This document shows, piece by piece, positions 8,591-22,773 of a stretch of DNA of 49,084 bases. Each line of letters starts with the position of its first letter. The stretch's first letter is position 1. Origin of the DNA: a virus (taxonomy: Duplodnaviria > Heunggongvirae > Uroviricota > Caudoviricetes); the IMG/VR virus record IMGVR_UViG_2851982317_000003; one strand, 5' to 3'. Both the position numbers and the translations under genes were made by a program. A model generated the notes under the pieces. It was not told the DNA's origin. It searched no databases and worked only from the letters and a program-made list of their open reading frames with translations.

Positions 8591-8645
8591 GGTGATGCTG
8601 CCAACTTACTGATTTAGTGTATGATGGTGTTTTTGAGGTGCTCCA

Positions 8646-17385: not shown

Positions 17386-18468
17386 TTAGAACTGATACAC
17401 CAGACCTACAGCGACGATGTCGTCGGTATCAATACCAGCTGTTTTGGTAAACTTACTATCGTCAATTAAGTTGATTTTGTAATCAACAAAAGTGGACATG
17501 TTTTTATTAAAGTAGTAAGTAGCACCGACATCGACATACTTGACTAAGTCTCGGTCACCATGAACACCAAGGTCTTTACCTTTTGACTGAAGGTAAGCAA
17601 CAGATGGTCGCAGACCGAAGTCAAACTGATATTGTGCTACTGCTTCAAAGTTTTGTGCTTTGTTTGCAATATGGTTATTACCAAAAACGGTCATATTCTG
17701 AGTTTCAGAATATGTGGTAGCCAGATAGATATTGTTCGCATCATATTTCAGGCCTGCAGCCCATACTTCCGCATTTTTGCCGGAGGCATTGAATTTGCTC
17801 TTACCATAGGCGACCTGACCGTCAGTGCGATCTGATTTAGCATAGGTTGCACCCACGCCGAATCCTTCATACTCATAAGTAGTGGAGAAACCGAAACCAT
17901 CACCATTGGCTTCAGTTACGTCAGTGCGGTCATTTTTACCCTGATACTGAGCAGCAAAGTTCAGGCCATCGACCAGACCAAAGAAGTCGTTGTTACGATA
18001 GGTTGCAACACCAGTGGTGCGACCAGTCATGAACACATCTGTTTGGGTCCAGGTATCGCCACCGAATTCTGGCAGAACGTCAGTCCACGCACCGATGTCG
18101 TATGCTACACCGTAGTTACGGCCGTAATCGATTGAGCCGTAGTCACCGAATTTCAGGCCTGCAAATGCAAGACGGGTTTTGTCTTTGGAGGAACCTTGAG
18201 ATTCAGCGCGGTTGCCTTTGAATTCATATTCCCACTGACCGAAACCAGTCAGTTGATCGTTGATTTGGGTTTCACCTTTGAAGCCAAGACGGGCATAAGT
18301 AGTATCACCATCATCTGCATCATTAGAGGAGAAGTAGTGCTTAGCATTAACTTTCCCGTACAGATCCAGCTTGTTACTGTCTTTATTATAAATTTCAGCT
18401 GCCTGAGCAGACATCGCCATCAGTACTGATGCAGCTACAGCAGAAATTGCCACTGTTAATTTTTTCAT
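17386..18468 (-). CDS. nmpC: OmpC-family trimeric porin, phage-borne (Lc / NmpC-like lysogenic-conversion gene)
   Basis: 360-aa ORF with signal peptide ([23 protein letters not shown]), AEIYNKD...C-terminal VYQF; between Q and holin in opposite orientation. Confidence 0.9.
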
Positions 18469-18896
18469 CGTGAGCCCTTTTTTTTGAACTATTATTAAAA
18501 AATGATGTCACTGCGCGATAAATATTCATCTAATCAATGTGATTATTTCAAGATGTAAGTTTTGGTTTCTCGTTTGATTTGTGAAGTAGATCTCTATTTT
18601 TATCTGAACTTTTTTCTATCGAATCCTATTCATGGCTCTTGGCTGAATAAAAATAAATCTATTAGCCAATTTATATTAACGGCTATTATTTATAAGTGCT
18701 CTATAATTTGAAGGTTCAATTTAAACCAGCTAAAAATAACACTGGAAATTATTTGTTGGTTATTTGTTGAGATTTGCTTATGTATTTGTAGTGGTGTTTT
18801 CAATACTCGGTAGCATTCTCGCAAATATCATTTAGTGGTTTACGTACGTAAAAAATTGGTTATGCTGTTAAGAGTGGTTACTTCGTCACACAGCTT

Positions 18897-18921
18897 AAAC
18901 CCGCCGTCGAGCGGGTTTTTC
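18897..18921 (+). terminator. Candidate intrinsic terminator upstream of the holin (CCCGC-CGTCGA-GCGGG + TTTTT)
   Basis: GC hairpin followed by a T-run in the long AT-rich intergenic region. Confidence 0.4.
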
Positions 18922-19057
18922 CATTTTTTGAGTCTCGATATTAGCTGATAACCCAATACCTGAGTTATTCACTGACTCCGAGTCTGTTACGTTTCTGCTT
19001 TTTTGCGATACGTTGTATTCCCTCAATTTACACCCGCTTTGTCTGCGAGGTGGGGTT

Positions 19058-19273
19058 ATGAAATCCATGGATAAGTTAACAACGGGTGTCGCCTATGGCA
19101 CCTCAGCAGGTAGTGCCGGGTACTGGTTTTTACAGCTGCTAGATAAAGTCACGCCCTCACAGTGGGCGGCAATTGGAGTGCTGGGTAGCCTGGTATTTGG
19201 CCTGCTGACGTACCTGACAAACCTTTATTTCAAGATTAAAGAAGACAAGCGTAAGGCTGCACGGGGAGAGTAA
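19058..19273 (+). CDS. essD: Class II holin / pinholin (S21-like) with dual-start MKSM motif; ORF-track start 19013 is upstream
   Basis: 71-aa reading [31 protein letters not shown]...; two TM segments. Confidence 0.9.
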
Positions 19274-19277
19274 TTCA

Positions 19278-19622
19278 ATGACTCAAAACTATGAACTGAT
19301 TGTGAAAGGGATCCGCAATTTTGAGAATAAAGTTACGGTAACTTTAGCGTTACGGGACAAAAAACGCTTTGACGGTGAAATTTTTGACCTAGACATCTCG
19401 CTGGACCGTGTTGAAGGTGCCGCGCTGGAGTTTTATGAGGCAGCAGCCAGAAGGAGCATCAGACAGGTCTTCCTGGATGTTGCTGCCGGGTTATGTGAAG
19501 GGGATGAGCTGTCGCCGGAAAAGCGCCCCATAATTTTAGAGGCGCAGAATGTGTGGATAACCTACAAAGGAAAGCTACCGGGAAGAATTACTGGTTCTCT
19601 GAAGACTCCGCCGAAATGGTAA
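19278..19622 (+). CDS. Hypothetical soluble protein inserted between holin and endolysin
   Basis: 114-aa ORF with GGGGAGAG RBS just after the holin stop; no recognisable motif. Confidence 0.5.
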   Translation: MTQNYELIVKGIRNFENKVTVTLALRDKKRFDGEIFDLDISLDRVEGAALEFYEAAARRSIRQVFLDVAAGLCEGDELSPEKRPIILEAQNVWITYKGKLPGRITGSLKTPPKW

Positions 19623-19860
19623 TTTCACCAGCATATTTTTCTTCCAGTAATACCGCCAGCCACTTGAAAGAATTTTGTTGTTGCTGGGACCATTTGGGGT
19701 TGAGTGATTCAAGCTGGAGCGATGCCAGTGTTGGTTGCATTTGTTCCTTGGGAATTGAGAATGCCAGATATGAAAATGCGACAGTAAGGGCATTTACATC
19801 ATCCCGAAGCCTGGAAATGCAGTCGAGCAACTCCTGTAGAGAAATGGTGCTATTGTCCAT
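19588..19860 (-). CDS. Hypothetical protein, convergent with and overlapping the 3' end of the preceding ORF by about 35 bp
   Basis: 90-aa reading from MDNSTISLQELL... with GAGAGG RBS. Confidence 0.4.
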   Translation of the reverse strand: MDNSTISLQELLDCISRLRDDVNALTVAFSYLAFSIPKEQMQPTLASLQLESLNPKWSQQQQNSFKWLAVLLEEKYAGEITISAESSENQ

Positions 19861-19965
19861 AAACAATCCTCTCTATTGTATTTAACTATTCCTTGCCTGA
19901 TTCAACAGGCCGGGACAGATAAACATATCCAGGGTTCAGAAACCGATAAATCCTGATAAATATCC

Positions 19966-20499
19966 ATGAACGCAAAAATCAGATACGGCCTGTCGGCTGC
20001 CGTTCTGGCACTGATTGCCGTCGGTGCGCCTGCGCCTGATATTCTCGACCAGTTTCTGGATGAAAAAGAAGGTAACCACACAACGGCATACCGCGATGGT
20101 TCCGGCATCTGGACCATCTGTCGGGGTGCCACGGTGGTGGATGGAAAACCCGTTTTTCCCGGTATGAAACTGTCGAAGGAAAAATGCGACCAGGTTAACG
20201 CCATTGAACGGGATAAGGCGCTGGCATGGGTGGAGCGCAATATTAAAGTGCCACTGACCGAACCACAGAAAGCGGGTATCGCGTCATTTTGTCCCTATAA
20301 CATTGGCCCCGGTAAGTGTTTCCCGTCGACGTTTTATAAGCGGCTGAATGCCGGTGATCGTAAAGGTGCATGCGAGGCGATTCGCTGGTGGATAAAAGAT
20401 GGTGGGCGCGATTGCCGCATACGTTCAAATAACTGCTATGGACAGGTTATTCGTCGTGACCAGGAAAGCGCATTAGCCTGTTGGGGGATAGATCAGTGA
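19966..20499 (+). CDS. SAR-endolysin (T4-lysozyme-like GH24 muramidase with N-terminal signal-anchor-release domain)
   Basis: 177-aa ORF; hydrophobic N-terminus ([18 protein letters not shown]) and E-x8-D-x5-T catalytic triad ([16 protein letters not shown]). Confidence 0.9.
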
Positions 20500-20954
20500 G
20501 CAGAGTCGCCGCGATTATTTATGCTCTGGTTATCTGCATCATCGTCTGCCTGTCATGGGCTGTTAATCATTACCGTGATAACGCAATCGCCTACAAAGAG
20601 CAGCGCGATAACAAGGCCAGTGAACTGGAGAAGGCGAACGCCACCATCGCTGACATGCGGAAGCGTCAACGTGATGTAGCAGAACTCGACGCAAGATACA
20701 CAAAGGAGCTTGCTGATGCTAACGCGACTATCGAAAGTCTCCGTGCTGATGTTTCTGCTGGGCGTAAGCGCCTGCAAGTCGCCGCCACCTGTGCAAAGTC
20801 AACGACCGGAGCCAGCGGCATGGGCGATGGAGAAAGCCCAAGACTTACAGCAGATGCTGAACTCAATTATTACCGTCTCCGAAGTGGAATCGACAGGATA
20901 ACCGCGCAGGTTAACTACCTGCAGGAGTACATCAGGACGCAATGTCTGAAATAA
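20496..20954 (+). CDS. Rz: Rz i-spanin (GTG start overlapping the endolysin stop)
   Basis: N-terminal TM segment then coiled-coil-like region; Rz position. Confidence 0.85.
20710..20901 (+). CDS. Rz1: Rz1 o-spanin lipoprotein embedded in the +1 frame of Rz (true start probably the internal Met before LLGVSAC)
   Basis: Lipobox (GVSAC) followed by Pro-rich mature region ([16 protein letters not shown]), fully nested in Rz. Confidence 0.75.
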
Positions 20955-20985
20955 TTTTTTTGCAAATCACAAAGTCCATTTAATG

Positions 20986-21010
20986 AGCCTCGCGATGCGG
21001 GGCTTTTTTG
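20986..21010 (+). terminator. Intrinsic terminator after the lysis cassette (AGCCTCGC-GAT-GCGGGGCT + TTTTT)
   Basis: GC hairpin with T-run directly downstream of the Rz stop. Confidence 0.6.
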
Positions 21011-21158
21011 CAATAAATGCGTACCGCAACGCATGTTTTTTTTACACCGAACCTGCCCCTTTGGAATGGGCCTTTGAGGATACCAGTTAGTGCTGGCGAG
21101 CCTCGGTGGGCTGGTTTCCTGTGCGGCAAAGGTTCATTTCAAATGGTAGGTAAACGTT

Positions 21159-21680
21159 ATGAATATCGTGCCACTTAATTACAAAGGTGAAATTGTCAGT
21201 TTCAACACTGATGGTTGGATCAACGTCACAGGTGTTGCTGAGAGATTTGGGAAACGCATTGATAACTGGATGCGTTTGGCAGAAACGCTTGAATACGTTC
21301 GTGCTTTAGACGAAGCGTTGACCGGGAAAGAATCTCAAATTTTACATCCCTCACAATCGAGGTATGTAAAAACCAGCAAGGCACGAAAGGACAGGGGTGG
21401 TGGTACGTGGCTACATCCAAAACTTTCAGTTGCATTTGCCCGTTGGTGTGATGCTCGTTTTGCTGTGTGGTGCGACCTGCACATTGATAGTCTGCTTCGC
21501 GGTGAACTGACTGAGCAGCAGAAATATGAGCAAGCATGTCGCATTCGCGATGACCGGAAATCAAAAGCCAGCAATGGGGCAAGAGAGATGGCTCGCTGGC
21601 GATGGGATAAGCCGGTTATTGAAGCAAATGTTGAGTACTGGCGCGAGCAACTGCAGTTGACTCTCGATATCGCGTGCTGA
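21159..21680 (+). CDS. KilA-N domain protein
   Basis: 173-aa ORF with KilA-N-like core (GTWLHPKLSVAFARWCDARFAVWCD). Confidence 0.55.
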   Translation: MNIVPLNYKGEIVSFNTDGWINVTGVAERFGKRIDNWMRLAETLEYVRALDEALTGKESQILHPSQSRYVKTSKARKDRGGGTWLHPKLSVAFARWCDARFAVWCDLHIDSLLRGELTEQQKYEQACRIRDDRKSKASNGAREMARWRWDKPVIEANVEYWREQLQLTLDIAC

Positions 21681-21748: not shown

Positions 21749-22426
21749 ATGTCCATCATTTTTAATGGACACTATCGTATGAAACACCGGACCTGGATCA
21801 CTGAAGCTTTACGTCTTCACTTTGAAGAACATTTACCCCGGGTTGTGGCCGGGCGTCGCCTGGGTGTACCAAAATCAACAGTTTGTAGTATGTTCGTGCG
21901 CTTTCGGAGAGCTGGCCTTTCGTGGCCTTTGCCCGCAGGCATGTCGGAGCAGGAACTTGATGCCTGCCTTTACGGACAATTTTCCACGGTACCAGTCGTA
22001 CGTCCTGAAAGCACCGTTATATCCGAAGCCCCCGTGGTAAAAAAACGTCCCCGGCGGCCCAACTTCCCTTATGAGTTTAAAATCGCCTTAGTGGAGCAGT
22101 CACTGCAGCCCGGAGCCTGTGTGGCGCAGATCGCCCGGGAAAACGGAATCAACGATAACCTGCTCTTCAACTGGCGCCATCAATACCGGAAAGGTGGCCT
22201 GCTGCCTTCCGGAAAAAATATGCCGGCACTGCTTCCCGTGACGTTAACGCCGGAGCCGGATAATAAAATCCCGGCCCCCGCACAGGAACCAGAGCAGATA
22301 AATACACCGTCCGACAGTCTGTGTTGTGAGCTGGTTCTGCCGGCCGGAACTCTCAGGCTTAAAGGTAAACTGACGCCGGCGTTATTACAGACACTTATCC
22401 GCGAAATAAAAGGGAGCAGCCACTGA
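21749..22426 (+). CDS. IS66-family accessory protein TnpA (orfA); start uncertain
   Basis: Contains the PRRPNFPYEFKIALVEQSLQPGACVAQIARENGINDNLLFNWRHQYRKG motif. Confidence 0.7.
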   Translation: MSIIFNGHYRMKHRTWITEALRLHFEEHLPRVVAGRRLGVPKSTVCSMFVRFRRAGLSWPLPAGMSEQELDACLYGQFSTVPVVRPESTVISEAPVVKKRPRRPNFPYEFKIALVEQSLQPGACVAQIARENGINDNLLFNWRHQYRKGGLLPSGKNMPALLPVTLTPEPDNKIPAPAQEPEQINTPSDSLCCELVLPAGTLRLKGKLTPALLQTLIREIKGSSH

Positions 22427-22773
22427 TGATATCTCTCCCTGCAGGTTCGCGTATCTGGCTGGTTGCAGGTATCACCGATATGCGAAATGGCTTTAACGGC
22501 CTGGCATCAAAAGTTCAGAACGTCCTGAAGGATGACCCGTTCTCCGGACACCTGTTCATCTTCCGCGGACGCCGGGGTGACCAGATAAAAGTGTTGTGGG
22601 CTGACAGTGACGGACTGTGCCTCTTCACCAAACGCCTGGAGCGGGGCCGCTTCGTCTGGCCAGTCACCCGTGACGGCAAGGTGCACCTTACTCCGGCTCA
22701 GTTATCCATGCTTCTTGAAGGTATCAACTGGAAGCACCCGAAACGAACGGAACGCGCTGGAATCCGCATATAA
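22426..22773 (+). CDS. IS66-family TnpB (orfB)
   Basis: 115-aa ORF MISLPAGSRIWLVAGITDMRNGFNGLASKV..., start overlapping the orfA stop. Confidence 0.85.
   Translation: MISLPAGSRIWLVAGITDMRNGFNGLASKVQNVLKDDPFSGHLFIFRGRRGDQIKVLWADSDGLCLFTKRLERGRFVWPVTRDGKVHLTPAQLSMLLEGINWKHPKRTERAGIRI

Follow-up and report, generated by a model that had tools for sequence, protein, structure and literature searches.

Sequence comparisons point to a selected reverse-strand gene in a polymorphic slot beside the lysis genes of Escherichia coli lambdoid prophages

The morons of lambdoid phages, among them bor, lom and the porin genes Lc of PA-2 and NmpC of DLP12, are independently transcribed accessory genes that lie between otherwise adjacent genes. 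A different arrangement is found in the operons of pore-forming colicins, where the activity gene, a reversed immunity gene and the lysis gene follow one another in that order, and where the immunity proteins are membrane proteins. A third point of reference is YdfR of the Qin prophage in E. coli K-12, a protein of 103 aa whose N-terminal domain (~72 residues) binds the catalytic half of RNase E, with RNA binding also possible (PMC13232886). Our search of the literature on DUF1327, ydfR/essQ and ybl58 returned no description of the locus considered here, and PMC13232886 alone bears on YdfR function.

The locus lies in a stretch of 49,084 nucleotides (the window, referring to this whole stretch), whose source element is an E. 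coli lambdoid prophage and which contains a full S21 pinholin/SAR-endolysin cassette. Specifically, an S21-type (class II) holin of 71 aa (19058..19273, + strand; PF04971, E 2e-35) with a TM-grade segment is followed on the same strand by a SAR-type endolysin (lysozyme) of 177 aa (19966..20499; PF00959, E 1.4e-24), by the Rz spanin gene that completes the cassette (20496..20954; PF03245, E 1.4e-40) and by Rz1, which is embedded in Rz (20710..20901; PF06085, E 2.4e-20). The hydrophobic N-terminal segment of the endolysin, with a maximum Kyte-Doolittle 19-residue mean (KD19) of 1.87, suggests SAR behavior for this enzyme. The same window also contains a reversed porin gene just upstream of the holin. 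The anatomy of the holin-to-endolysin interval (19274-19965, 692 bp) is as the earlier note had claimed, with a 114-aa ORF on the + strand and a 90-aa ORF on the − strand that overlap by 35 bp.

The forward frame belongs to the ydfR family of late genes. This frame (19278..19622, + strand, stop codon included) scores 142.8 bits against PF07041 (DUF1327; cut-off 25), with residues 1-112 aligned to profile positions 1-92 of 93, matches phrog_406 with an E value of 1.5e-67, and is annotated as "YdfR family protein" in RefSeq and GenBank records. Its Shine-Dalgarno sequence, GGGGAGAG (19263-19270, + strand), is located 8-9 nt upstream, where it overlaps the stop codon of the holin. Like YdfR of K-12, it is a full-length PF07041 member placed after a class II holin and before a lysozyme, and the RNase E-binding N-terminal ~72 residues of the K-12 protein fall in the core conserved in the window allele. 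The premise of the earlier note that holin and endolysin are normally adjacent fails for E. coli lambdoid prophages, in which a YdfR-family gene usually stands between the class II holin and the lysozyme. The order holin, ydfR, lysozyme is annotated in BP-4795, PhiR40_1, mEp460 and the CP53 prophage, as well as in Stx phages and many RefSeq genomes, and ydfR core DNA is present in 4,348 of 5,426 complete E. coli genomes. Because a YdfR-family gene is the usual occupant of this interval, only ~308 bp of the ~690 bp that had been taken as intervening count as inserted.

Alignments and an anchor analysis of 92 loci place the conserved YdfR core at codons 1-112 (19278..19613, + strand), ending ...ITGSLKTPP, and this core sequence is common to all slot variants through 19613. 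Past the core, C-terminal variants are numerous in the family, whose members range from 104 to about 296 aa; the window allele has no C-terminal domain there and ends ...TPPKW at the cassette border. AF2 models this allele with low confidence (pLDDT 59), and its KD19 of 0.69 compares with 1.72 in the holin and 1.87 in the SAR segment of the endolysin.

The variable cassette itself (~308 bp, about 19614..19921) comprises the final two codons and the stop of ydfR, the body of the 90-aa reverse-strand ORF (orf90) and the orf90 5′ region. Homology to phages that lack it breaks at ~19614 and resumes at ~19921 (BP-4795 type) or at ~19939 (PhiR40_1 type). The distance from the YdfR core to the endolysin gene (R) is 351 nt in 41 of the 92 loci; in 38 others it is 77 or 58 nt, with YdfR at least 95% identical and the cassette absent. 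Overall, roughly one in five complete E. coli genomes (1,220/5,426) contains the cassette, and as judged from these loci it is dispensable. Phage Chlobot and an E. coli B derivative are among its carriers. Its GC content is about 0.43 as against 0.50-0.54 in ydfR and R, a modest difference.

Elsewhere, the same slot is occupied by at least three other reversed ORFs of 86, 104/118 and 91 aa, which are unrelated. The forward and reverse ORFs form sets of 114/90 aa, of 172, 176 or 183/86 aa, of 268/104 aa and of 161/91 aa, and the four cassettes occur at 1,357 (orf90), 335, 134 and 50 places, compared with 8,616 places for ydfR. These comparisons clearly mark the slot that separates the YdfR core from the endolysin as a polymorphic hotspot for small reversed genes, of which our literature search found no published description. 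Homology between the different reversed ORFs, suggested by eye from a shared MD...Q...D.I..LR pattern, was rejected by BLASTP and hhalign. At the R-proximal end of the window cassette, a small hairpin (GCCTG-ATTCAA-CAGGC, 19895..19910) can be read from the sequence, and in other cassettes a hairpin CGCCAGTG...CACTGGCG is found at the same relative position. Short repeats are also seen at the cassette borders (CTGAAGAYT, and TCC(A/T)CCG in the hairpin arm); they are not established as a site-specific signal.

With respect to the reverse strand, several lines of evidence identify orf90 (19588..19860, − strand, stop codon included) as a gene. The frame starts with an ATG at 19860 and stops at 19588-19590 (a TTG start at 19866 would instead yield 92 aa), and it matches phrog_2411 of PHROGs v4 over its entire length, with residues 1-90 on profile positions 1-90 of 90 (E 1.6e-59). 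It is intact across four lineages at 68-91% DNA identity, and the mirrored + frame that shares the orf90 wobble positions contains 1-4 stop codons in three of these four lineages. The dN/dS ratio is 0.2-0.4 within Escherichia and ~0.1 relative to the Citrobacter homologue, in which dS is saturated. We also considered the open + strand frame 19553-19885, as well as the idea that it extends YdfR through a −1 frameshift, and rejected both, as the frame contains stops in other lineages. Taken together, these comparisons argue firmly that orf90 is a real gene under selection. Of 41 loci, 39 keep it intact and two carry nonsense alleles, and several of its database entries are frameshifted 94-aa forms, which indicates that the gene is dispensable in some hosts.

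The predicted product of orf90 is a small, acidic, soluble three-helix protein. Its AF2 model is confident (pLDDT 83.5), with helices at residues 8-34, 38-52 and 59-77, and residues 81-90 are modeled as disordered (pLDDT below 50). The KD19 maximum is 0.88, which provides no TM segment (the corresponding value for the holin is 1.72). Searches of orf90 against Pfam, NCBIfam and PADLOC gave no match, defense and toxin-antitoxin profiles likewise matched nothing, a profile search of the PDB returned only noise at E 0.54, and Foldseek comparison of the model with BFVD yielded nothing at E ≤ 0.001, leaving no informative fold match. The lack of a TM segment, of a defense or toxin-antitoxin profile and of an informative fold match fits a small binding protein.

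Distant homologues of the same length, with 30-45% identity, are found in six other genera. In Serratia, Chania and Chimaeribacter the homologue is a chromosomal gene, X, in the order rne-ABM-pyrC-dinI-X-bssS-solA (the Chania locus lacks the ABM gene), where it comes after the dinI terminator and is preceded by a Shine-Dalgarno sequence of its own. This ~90-aa protein has the motif ELL..I..LR..VN.L..AFSYLAFS...E....T...L.FES in common with orf90; unlike orf90, its gene is co-oriented with its neighbors and has no phage genes nearby. A CTG-N10-CAG sequence upstream of the Serratia proteamaculans homologue near dinI raised the possibility of SOS regulation of the family, which was rejected as the sequence is not kept in S. 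marcescens, Chania or Chimaeribacter. The Sodalis homologue stands alone, the homologue in a Citrobacter prophage lies on the upstream side of the holin and is here too antisense to the lysis genes, and in E. coli an iha-adjacent remnant retains an intact orf90 copy at about 70% DNA identity between ydfR and R flanks that are truncated or decayed. The family, for which there is no Pfam entry, therefore extends to chromosomal genes of Serratia and relatives, and orf90 is independent of ydfR. The suggestion of an independent small module is thus borne out for the reverse ORF, which is missing at this site in sister phages and occurs without ydfR in other genera. Functionally, the two ORFs probably do not make up a pair.

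In terms of expression, the Shine-Dalgarno sequence of orf90, GAGAGGAT (GAGAGGA; 19866..19873, − strand), is located 7 nt before the ATG, and its GAGGA core does not vary among the five upstream alleles of the 41 loci. Directly upstream is a candidate weak sigma-70 promoter (19875..19905, − strand) with a −10 hexamer TACAAT (19875-19880) and a −35 hexamer TTGAAT (19900-19905) separated by a 19-nt spacer; across the alleles of the 41 loci these hexamers are kept as (T/G)ACAAT and TTG(A/C)(A/C)T. We infer that TTGAAT-19 nt-TACAAT may serve as the orf90 promoter. The standard scan called no orf90 promoter, since it accepts spacers of 16-18 nt only and the candidate has a 19-nt spacer. The leader of the candidate would also be very short. 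No minus-strand intrinsic terminator was found in 18400-21200, so that the textbook promoter-gene-terminator structure of a moron does not apply. Like the morons, orf90 separates two genes that sister phages carry side by side; it runs opposite to the late operon, and its GC content is below that of its flanks. Unlike them, it has no clear flanking promoter or terminator and overlaps a neighboring gene.

On balance, we favor, with moderate confidence, the reading of orf90 as a self-contained, moron-like gene that is driven from its own promoter, is opposed by late transcription and is not partnered with YdfR. On this account ydfR is one of the usual late-operon genes of lambdoid coliphages and shares its transcript with S, R and Rz, and orf90 rides on the ~308-bp cassette in a recombination-prone slot that extends from the YdfR core to the endolysin ribosome-binding region. 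Being antisense to the only late transcript, orf90 could be expressed from its own promoter only, and the candidate promoter directly upstream of the invariant Shine-Dalgarno sequence would permit expression in the prophage state. Upon Q-dependent late transcription, convergent RNA polymerase traffic and sense-antisense pairing should switch orf90 off. The 35-bp overlap is explained by the cassette abutting the ydfR end, with the reverse frame continuing to its first stop inside ydfR. The protein itself most likely binds a host protein conserved across Enterobacterales, because members of its family are encoded chromosomally in Serratia and relatives.

What runs against this reading is that each of the four forward 3′ modules is found repeatedly with a reversed ORF of its own, as functional pairs also would be. 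The interval could accordingly be viewed as a functional two-gene cassette composed of a late effector (YdfR, with a modular C-terminus) and a constitutive reversed partner, for instance an immunity protein or antidote, of which the window would have kept an orphan partner after loss of the effector domain. That at least four different forward 3′ ends are found, each accompanied by a reversed ORF of its own, is in keeping with such pairs, as is one locus at which the YdfR core is replaced yet a 147-aa forward domain (81% identical) and the reversed ORF (68% identical) remain together, both under purifying selection (dN/dS 0.28 and 0.47, respectively). Moreover, the Citrobacter orf90 homologue also converges on and overlaps a forward ORF, which ends ...ITGSLRAPIKL and so has the ...ITGSL(K/R)xPxK motif of YdfR; this shared end implies that the junction with the reverse ORF predates any recent insertion. 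Nonetheless, we regard a functional pair as unlikely. The window YdfR has no C-terminal domain past the core, the known cassettes occupy a minority of ydfR places, so that co-occurrence is not obligatory, orf90 homologues in Yersiniaceae and Sodalis have no ydfR-like neighbor, and toxin, immunity, toxin-antitoxin and defense profiles (PADLOC, Pfam and NCBIfam) match none of these proteins beyond DUF1327. In addition, neighboring or overlapping genes are physically linked whether they interact or not.

The antisense cross-regulation suggested in the earlier note is plausible on geometric grounds. As an explanation in its own right it would make the antisense transcript, and not a protein, the product: minus-strand transcription through the ydfR 3′ end into S would damp leaky expression of holin and ydfR in the lysogen or tune lysis timing. 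The convergent, overlapping arrangement, its repetition with unrelated reversed ORFs, and the lack of a minus-strand intrinsic terminator between orf90 and the holin all suit this proposal, which we nevertheless consider quite improbable in view of the protein-level purifying selection on the reverse frame, its invariant Shine-Dalgarno sequence and its non-phage protein homologues. Rfam searches of the whole window at gathering thresholds gave 0 matches, and the fold of the orf90 leader RNA is unremarkable (z = −1.08). The length of the overlap also varies widely among cassettes, from the 35 nt seen here through 53, 68, 21 and 14 nt to 0. In the window the overlap (19588..19622) joins ydfR codons 104-114 with orf90 codons 80-90, and it looks incidental, because the last ~10 residues of orf90 are modeled as disordered and the Citrobacter homologue stops at a homologous position 7 codons before the end of orf90. 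An RNA role could exist beside the orf90 protein.

The likeness to colicin operons permits a more far-reaching proposal. The slot resembles them in order and orientation, with a forward gene of variable C-terminus, a small convergent gene and then the lysis genes, and in the pairing of different forward modules with different reversed genes. By this analogy the slot after the YdfR core would hold polymorphic, convergent two-gene cassettes, in which swappable forward C-terminal modules affect bacteria at the time of lysis or afterwards, or else a host target, for example the RNA degradosome, and in which a cognate reversed protector or modulator is expressed by the lysogen, as a phage analogue of colicin-immunity-lysis operons. 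The window would then retain an orphan protector, kept for defending the lysogen against relatives with a matching effector. We view this idea as decidedly doubtful. Unlike the immunity proteins of pore-forming colicins, orf90 is predicted to be soluble, the forward gene of the window lacks a C-terminal module, and the two genes need not occur together. Comparison of the slot proteins with colicins, immunity proteins and polymorphic toxins gave no sequence or profile match.

A direct part in lysis, with orf90 as an antiholin-like or endolysin-controlling regulator, is very unlikely. Position is what speaks for it, between S and R here and beside the holin in Citrobacter. The gene, however, is on the strand opposing the late transcript, its product has no segment approaching the TM grade of the holin (KD19 0.88 vs 1.72), it is missing from about half of near-identical lysis cassettes, and its homologues in Yersiniaceae are chromosomal genes in a housekeeping context. 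The view of the earlier note that neither ORF resembles a known lysis protein agrees with our searches, in which both were without a Pfam lysis family, a PADLOC match or a TM-grade hydrophobic segment. Finally, that orf90 is no gene at all, simply an open antisense frame or annotation artefact, is scarcely credible: its shortness, its lack of a Pfam or NCBIfam family and the long opposite-strand open frame of the window (19553-19885) would fit such an origin, which is countered by the unbroken minus frame in lineages where the + frame is stopped, by the low dN/dS relative to Citrobacter (about 0.1, with saturated dS), by the same-length homologues that profile searches recover from six other genera and by the confident AF2 model.

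The ydfR/orf90 pair is common, labeled "YdfR family protein" and "hypothetical protein" by RefSeq in more than a thousand genomes, and as it is already annotated there our analysis is no discovery of a new element. What is useful is, first, that a widely repeated reversed ORF is a real gene under selection whose family, without a Pfam entry, reaches the chromosomes of Serratia and relatives. Second, the S21-type holin-endolysin interval emerges from these comparisons as a hotspot with at least four alternative reversed genes, each tied to a different forward 3′ end. Expression of these reversed genes in lysogens would make them a pool of uncharacterized lysogenic-conversion factors; if they are instead partners of the forward modules, the locus would represent a new kind of phage effector-protector system beside the lysis genes.

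The window contains a complete S21-type lysis cassette, in which the holin gene (19058-19273; PF04971, E = 2e-35) is accompanied by the lysozyme gene R (19966-20499; PF00959), Rz (20496-20954; PF03245) and an embedded Rz1 (20710-20901; PF06085). The N-terminal segment of the lysozyme is hydrophobic, with a 19-residue Kyte-Doolittle mean of 1.87. The holin stop and the R start are 692 bp apart, and, as proposed in an earlier note, this interval is occupied by two convergent ORFs. The first is a 114-aa ORF on the late strand (19278-19622) with GGGGAGAG 8-9 nt upstream, and the second is a 90-aa ORF on the opposite strand (orf90; 19588-19860), whose ATG at 19860 is preceded by GAGAGGA 7 nt upstream. 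Their 3′ overlap, previously put at about 35 bp, is 35 bp (19588-19622). The accompanying interpretation, of an inserted pair suggestive of antisense cross-regulation or an independent small module, stands in part. The reversed gene is real, and the forward gene is known and normally placed.

A strong hairpin of terminator type (AAACCCGCCGTCGAGCGGGTTT, then a T-run; 18897-18918, plus strand), some 140 nt before the start of the holin gene, is possibly the late-operon tR′ terminator, the site of action of Q. A complete OmpC/NmpC-like porin gene in reverse orientation (17386-18468; PF00267, E = 2e-151) lies a short way upstream of the holin and would count as a further reversed accessory gene beside the lysis cassette; a very AT-rich stretch (GC 0.28-0.35; 18469-18900) comes after it. 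Downstream of Rz, a KilA-N domain ORF (21159-21680) is directly followed by IS66-family genes (an HTH_Tnp_1 ORF and IS66 Orf2/TnpB; 21749-22773), which suggests that the prophage is interrupted by an insertion sequence in this region.

An ordinary member of the YdfR family, the forward ORF reaches 142.8 bits against PF07041 (DUF1327; cut-off 25) and matches phrog_406 (E = 1.5e-67). GenBank and RefSeq apply the label "YdfR family protein" at the equivalent position, between a class II holin and a lysozyme, in BP-4795, PhiR40_1, mEp460 and vB_EcoS-783R2. An otherwise lambda-like prophage of strain CP53 has the order Q, tRNAs, essD, ydfR, hypothetical protein, rrrQ, Rz. DNA of the YdfR core (codons 1-112; 19278-19614) occurs at 8,616 places, spread over 4,348 of the 5,426 complete E. 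coli genomes. Given this distribution and the annotated examples, the adjacency of holin and endolysin that the earlier note took as the norm holds for phage 21 but not for E. coli lambdoid prophages generally. With respect to function, K-12 YdfR binds the catalytic N-terminal half of RNase E via its first 72 residues (two-hybrid and co-purification), RNA co-purified with the protein, and its overexpression changed few transcripts (PMC13232886, 2026); our literature search found no other functional study of YdfR.

The reversed ORF is likewise a real gene, catalogued, uncharacterised and probably of the moron kind (an independently transcribed accessory gene in lambdoid phage). It matches phrog_2411 end to end (E = 1.6e-59), and searches of Pfam, NCBIfam and PADLOC gave no match. 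Its minus frame is intact across four Escherichia lineages at 68-91% DNA identity, with dN/dS of 0.21-0.38 and substitutions concentrated at third codon positions (for example 7, 7 and 27); the mirrored plus frame, taken as a control, has wobble positions in common and a similar ratio, and is interrupted by stops in three of the four lineages, which have 1, 2 and 4 of them. Comparison with a Citrobacter homologue gives a saturated dS, a dN of 0.34 and a ratio of approximately 0.1. Among the 41 cassette-bearing loci, orf90 is intact in 39 and its GAGGA Shine-Dalgarno is invariant, and frameshifted 94-aa forms make up a minority of database entries. As frameshifted (94-aa) or nonsense alleles are found in some E. 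coli genomes (proteins P0045, P0047, P0050, P0051, P0059 and P0064; two of the 41 loci with a 351-nt spacer), a minority of hosts are losing orf90.

Alignment with related phages reveals homology that continues to YdfR codon 112 (...SLKTPP; position 19613), breaks, and returns ~30-45 bp before the R start. With the end of the YdfR core and the start of R as anchors, we measured the intervening spacer in 92 loci. It is 351 nt in 41 loci (the window type), 77 nt in 36 and 58 nt in two (no cassette), 534-536 nt in five and 922 nt in two (different cassettes), and 1,603 nt in one, where an IS element is inserted; the remaining four loci could not be anchored at both ends. The window cassette (~19614-19921) has a GC content of 0.43, versus 0.50-0.54 in its flanks, and is present in 1,220 of the 5,426 complete genomes. 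By these sequence comparisons, the orf90 cassette is dispensable and its slot polymorphic.

Each of the other cassettes likewise has a short reversed ORF, which is preceded by a good Shine-Dalgarno and converges on a YdfR whose 3′ end differs. An 86-aa ORF (phrog_2572; L004, L090, L100 and L104; 314/5,426 genomes) overlaps a YdfR of 172, 176 or 183 aa by 21-53 nt, a 104-aa ORF (phrog_1853; 104/118 aa in L050/L110; 95/5,426) is separated from a 268-aa YdfR by a 10-nt gap, and a 91-aa ORF (L102; 45/5,426) overlaps a 161-aa YdfR by 68 nt. Relatedness among the four reversed proteins of the slot was ruled out by BLASTP and hhalign. At the slot (19614-19921), at least four unrelated small reversed ORFs each face a forward 3′ module of a distinct type (core only, coiled coil, 147-aa domain or coil variant), and the forward proteins combine core, coil and 147-aa domain variously, one form being without the core. 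At the R-proximal border of the cassette there is a hairpin, CGCCAGTG-N6-CACTGGCG, and short repeats, CTGAAGAYT and TCC(A/T)CCG, flank the slot; these features are located at 19895-19930 in the window, ~3700-3760 in L050, ~3300-3370 in L090 and 2837-2896 in L091. In L050 and Citrobacter a terminator-like T-run follows the hairpin on the reverse strand, upstream of the reversed gene. The repeats, the second of which occurs both in the SLKTPP codons and in the hairpin arm, may mark the junctions of deletions or insertions.

Profile searches recovered orf90 homologues of 81-97 aa (30-45% identity) in Serratia, Chania, Chimaeribacter, Gibbsiella, Sodalis and Acerihabitans. The chromosomal order in Serratia, Chania and Chimaeribacter is rne-ABM-pyrC-dinI-X-bssS-solA, where X is the homologue (the Chania locus is without the ABM gene); X is co-oriented with the genes around it, lies after the dinI terminator and has a separate Shine-Dalgarno (L092 5001-5279, L106 2501-2782, L107 2501-2770, L108 2501-2779). 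In these genera its place is invariably the dinI-bssS interval, with rne a few genes upstream. A LexA-like box apparent at the homologue in one species is not conserved in the others. In Sodalis the homologue stands alone. These relatives without ydfR bear out the earlier suggestion of an independent module, and orf90 does not depend on ydfR.

A Citrobacter freundii prophage has an 83-aa homologue (62% identical) upstream of the holin and antisense to the lysis genes, overlapping a forward ORF of 63/77 aa by 14 nt (L095 4533-5472); the reversed gene is preceded by a hairpin, CGCCAGTGGTAGGACACTGGCG, with TTT after it. From 72 E. coli records in the 60-80% identity band, one was examined, an intact copy adjacent to iha at ~70% DNA identity with the ydfR flank cut by IS2 and the R start decayed. 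In this decayed lysis-region fragment (ydfR 3′ end, orf90 and R start; E. coli VTB97379v, L006 1305-1900), beside the iha adhesin/siderophore-receptor gene, orf90 is the sole intact ORF. The Stx2k phage phiSTEC1575-Stx2k (L009 1201-1886) also has the ydfR and orf90 unit, with a YdfR N-terminus of the BP-4795 type, different downstream lysis genes (two holin-family genes and an M15 peptidase) and a reversed IraM anti-adaptor gene upstream of the holin.

That forward gene and reversed ORF form a true functional pair seems to us quite improbable. In strain ERL03-1416, a forward gene without the YdfR core retains the coiled-coil module and, at 81% identity, the 147-aa domain of the 268-aa form, the matching reversed ORF still follows it (68% identical), and both are under purifying selection. 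The forward ORF of Citrobacter is similar to the coiled-coil module of long YdfRs and ends ...KITGSLRAPIKL, as YdfR ends ...RITGSLKTPPKW. In view of these two cases, forward 3′ modules and reversed ORFs travel together, and their layout resembles that of pore-forming colicin operons, in which the activity gene is followed by a reversed immunity gene and then by the lysis gene. Adjacent genes are linked anyway, however, and the window YdfR is without a C-terminal module, most ydfR copies are without a reversed neighbour, and orf90 relatives exist without ydfR; moreover, no toxin, immunity or defence profile was matched.

The reading that we favor is of orf90 as a gene expressed on its own account. 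Lambdoid phage late genes are all read from one strand, and orf90, reversed in the late operon, would therefore be expressible only from its own promoter. The best candidate, TTGAAT (19900-19905) and TACAAT (19875-19880) with a 19-nt spacer, is conserved across alleles; it is weak and was not called by a standard scan, and the scan found no minus-strand terminator after orf90. On the basis of this requirement and the candidate promoter, we regard orf90 as a moron-like accessory gene that is probably active in the prophage and that convergent late transcription would oppose after induction. Its product is a small soluble protein and probably acts by binding a host protein that Enterobacterales have in common. 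The overlap of 35 bp looks like a by-product, since the protein tail is modelled as disordered and differs between homologues, and the Citrobacter homologue ends 7 codons earlier at the homologous position. The literature searched yielded no description of the polymorphic slot or of the wider orf90 family, and both are worth following up.
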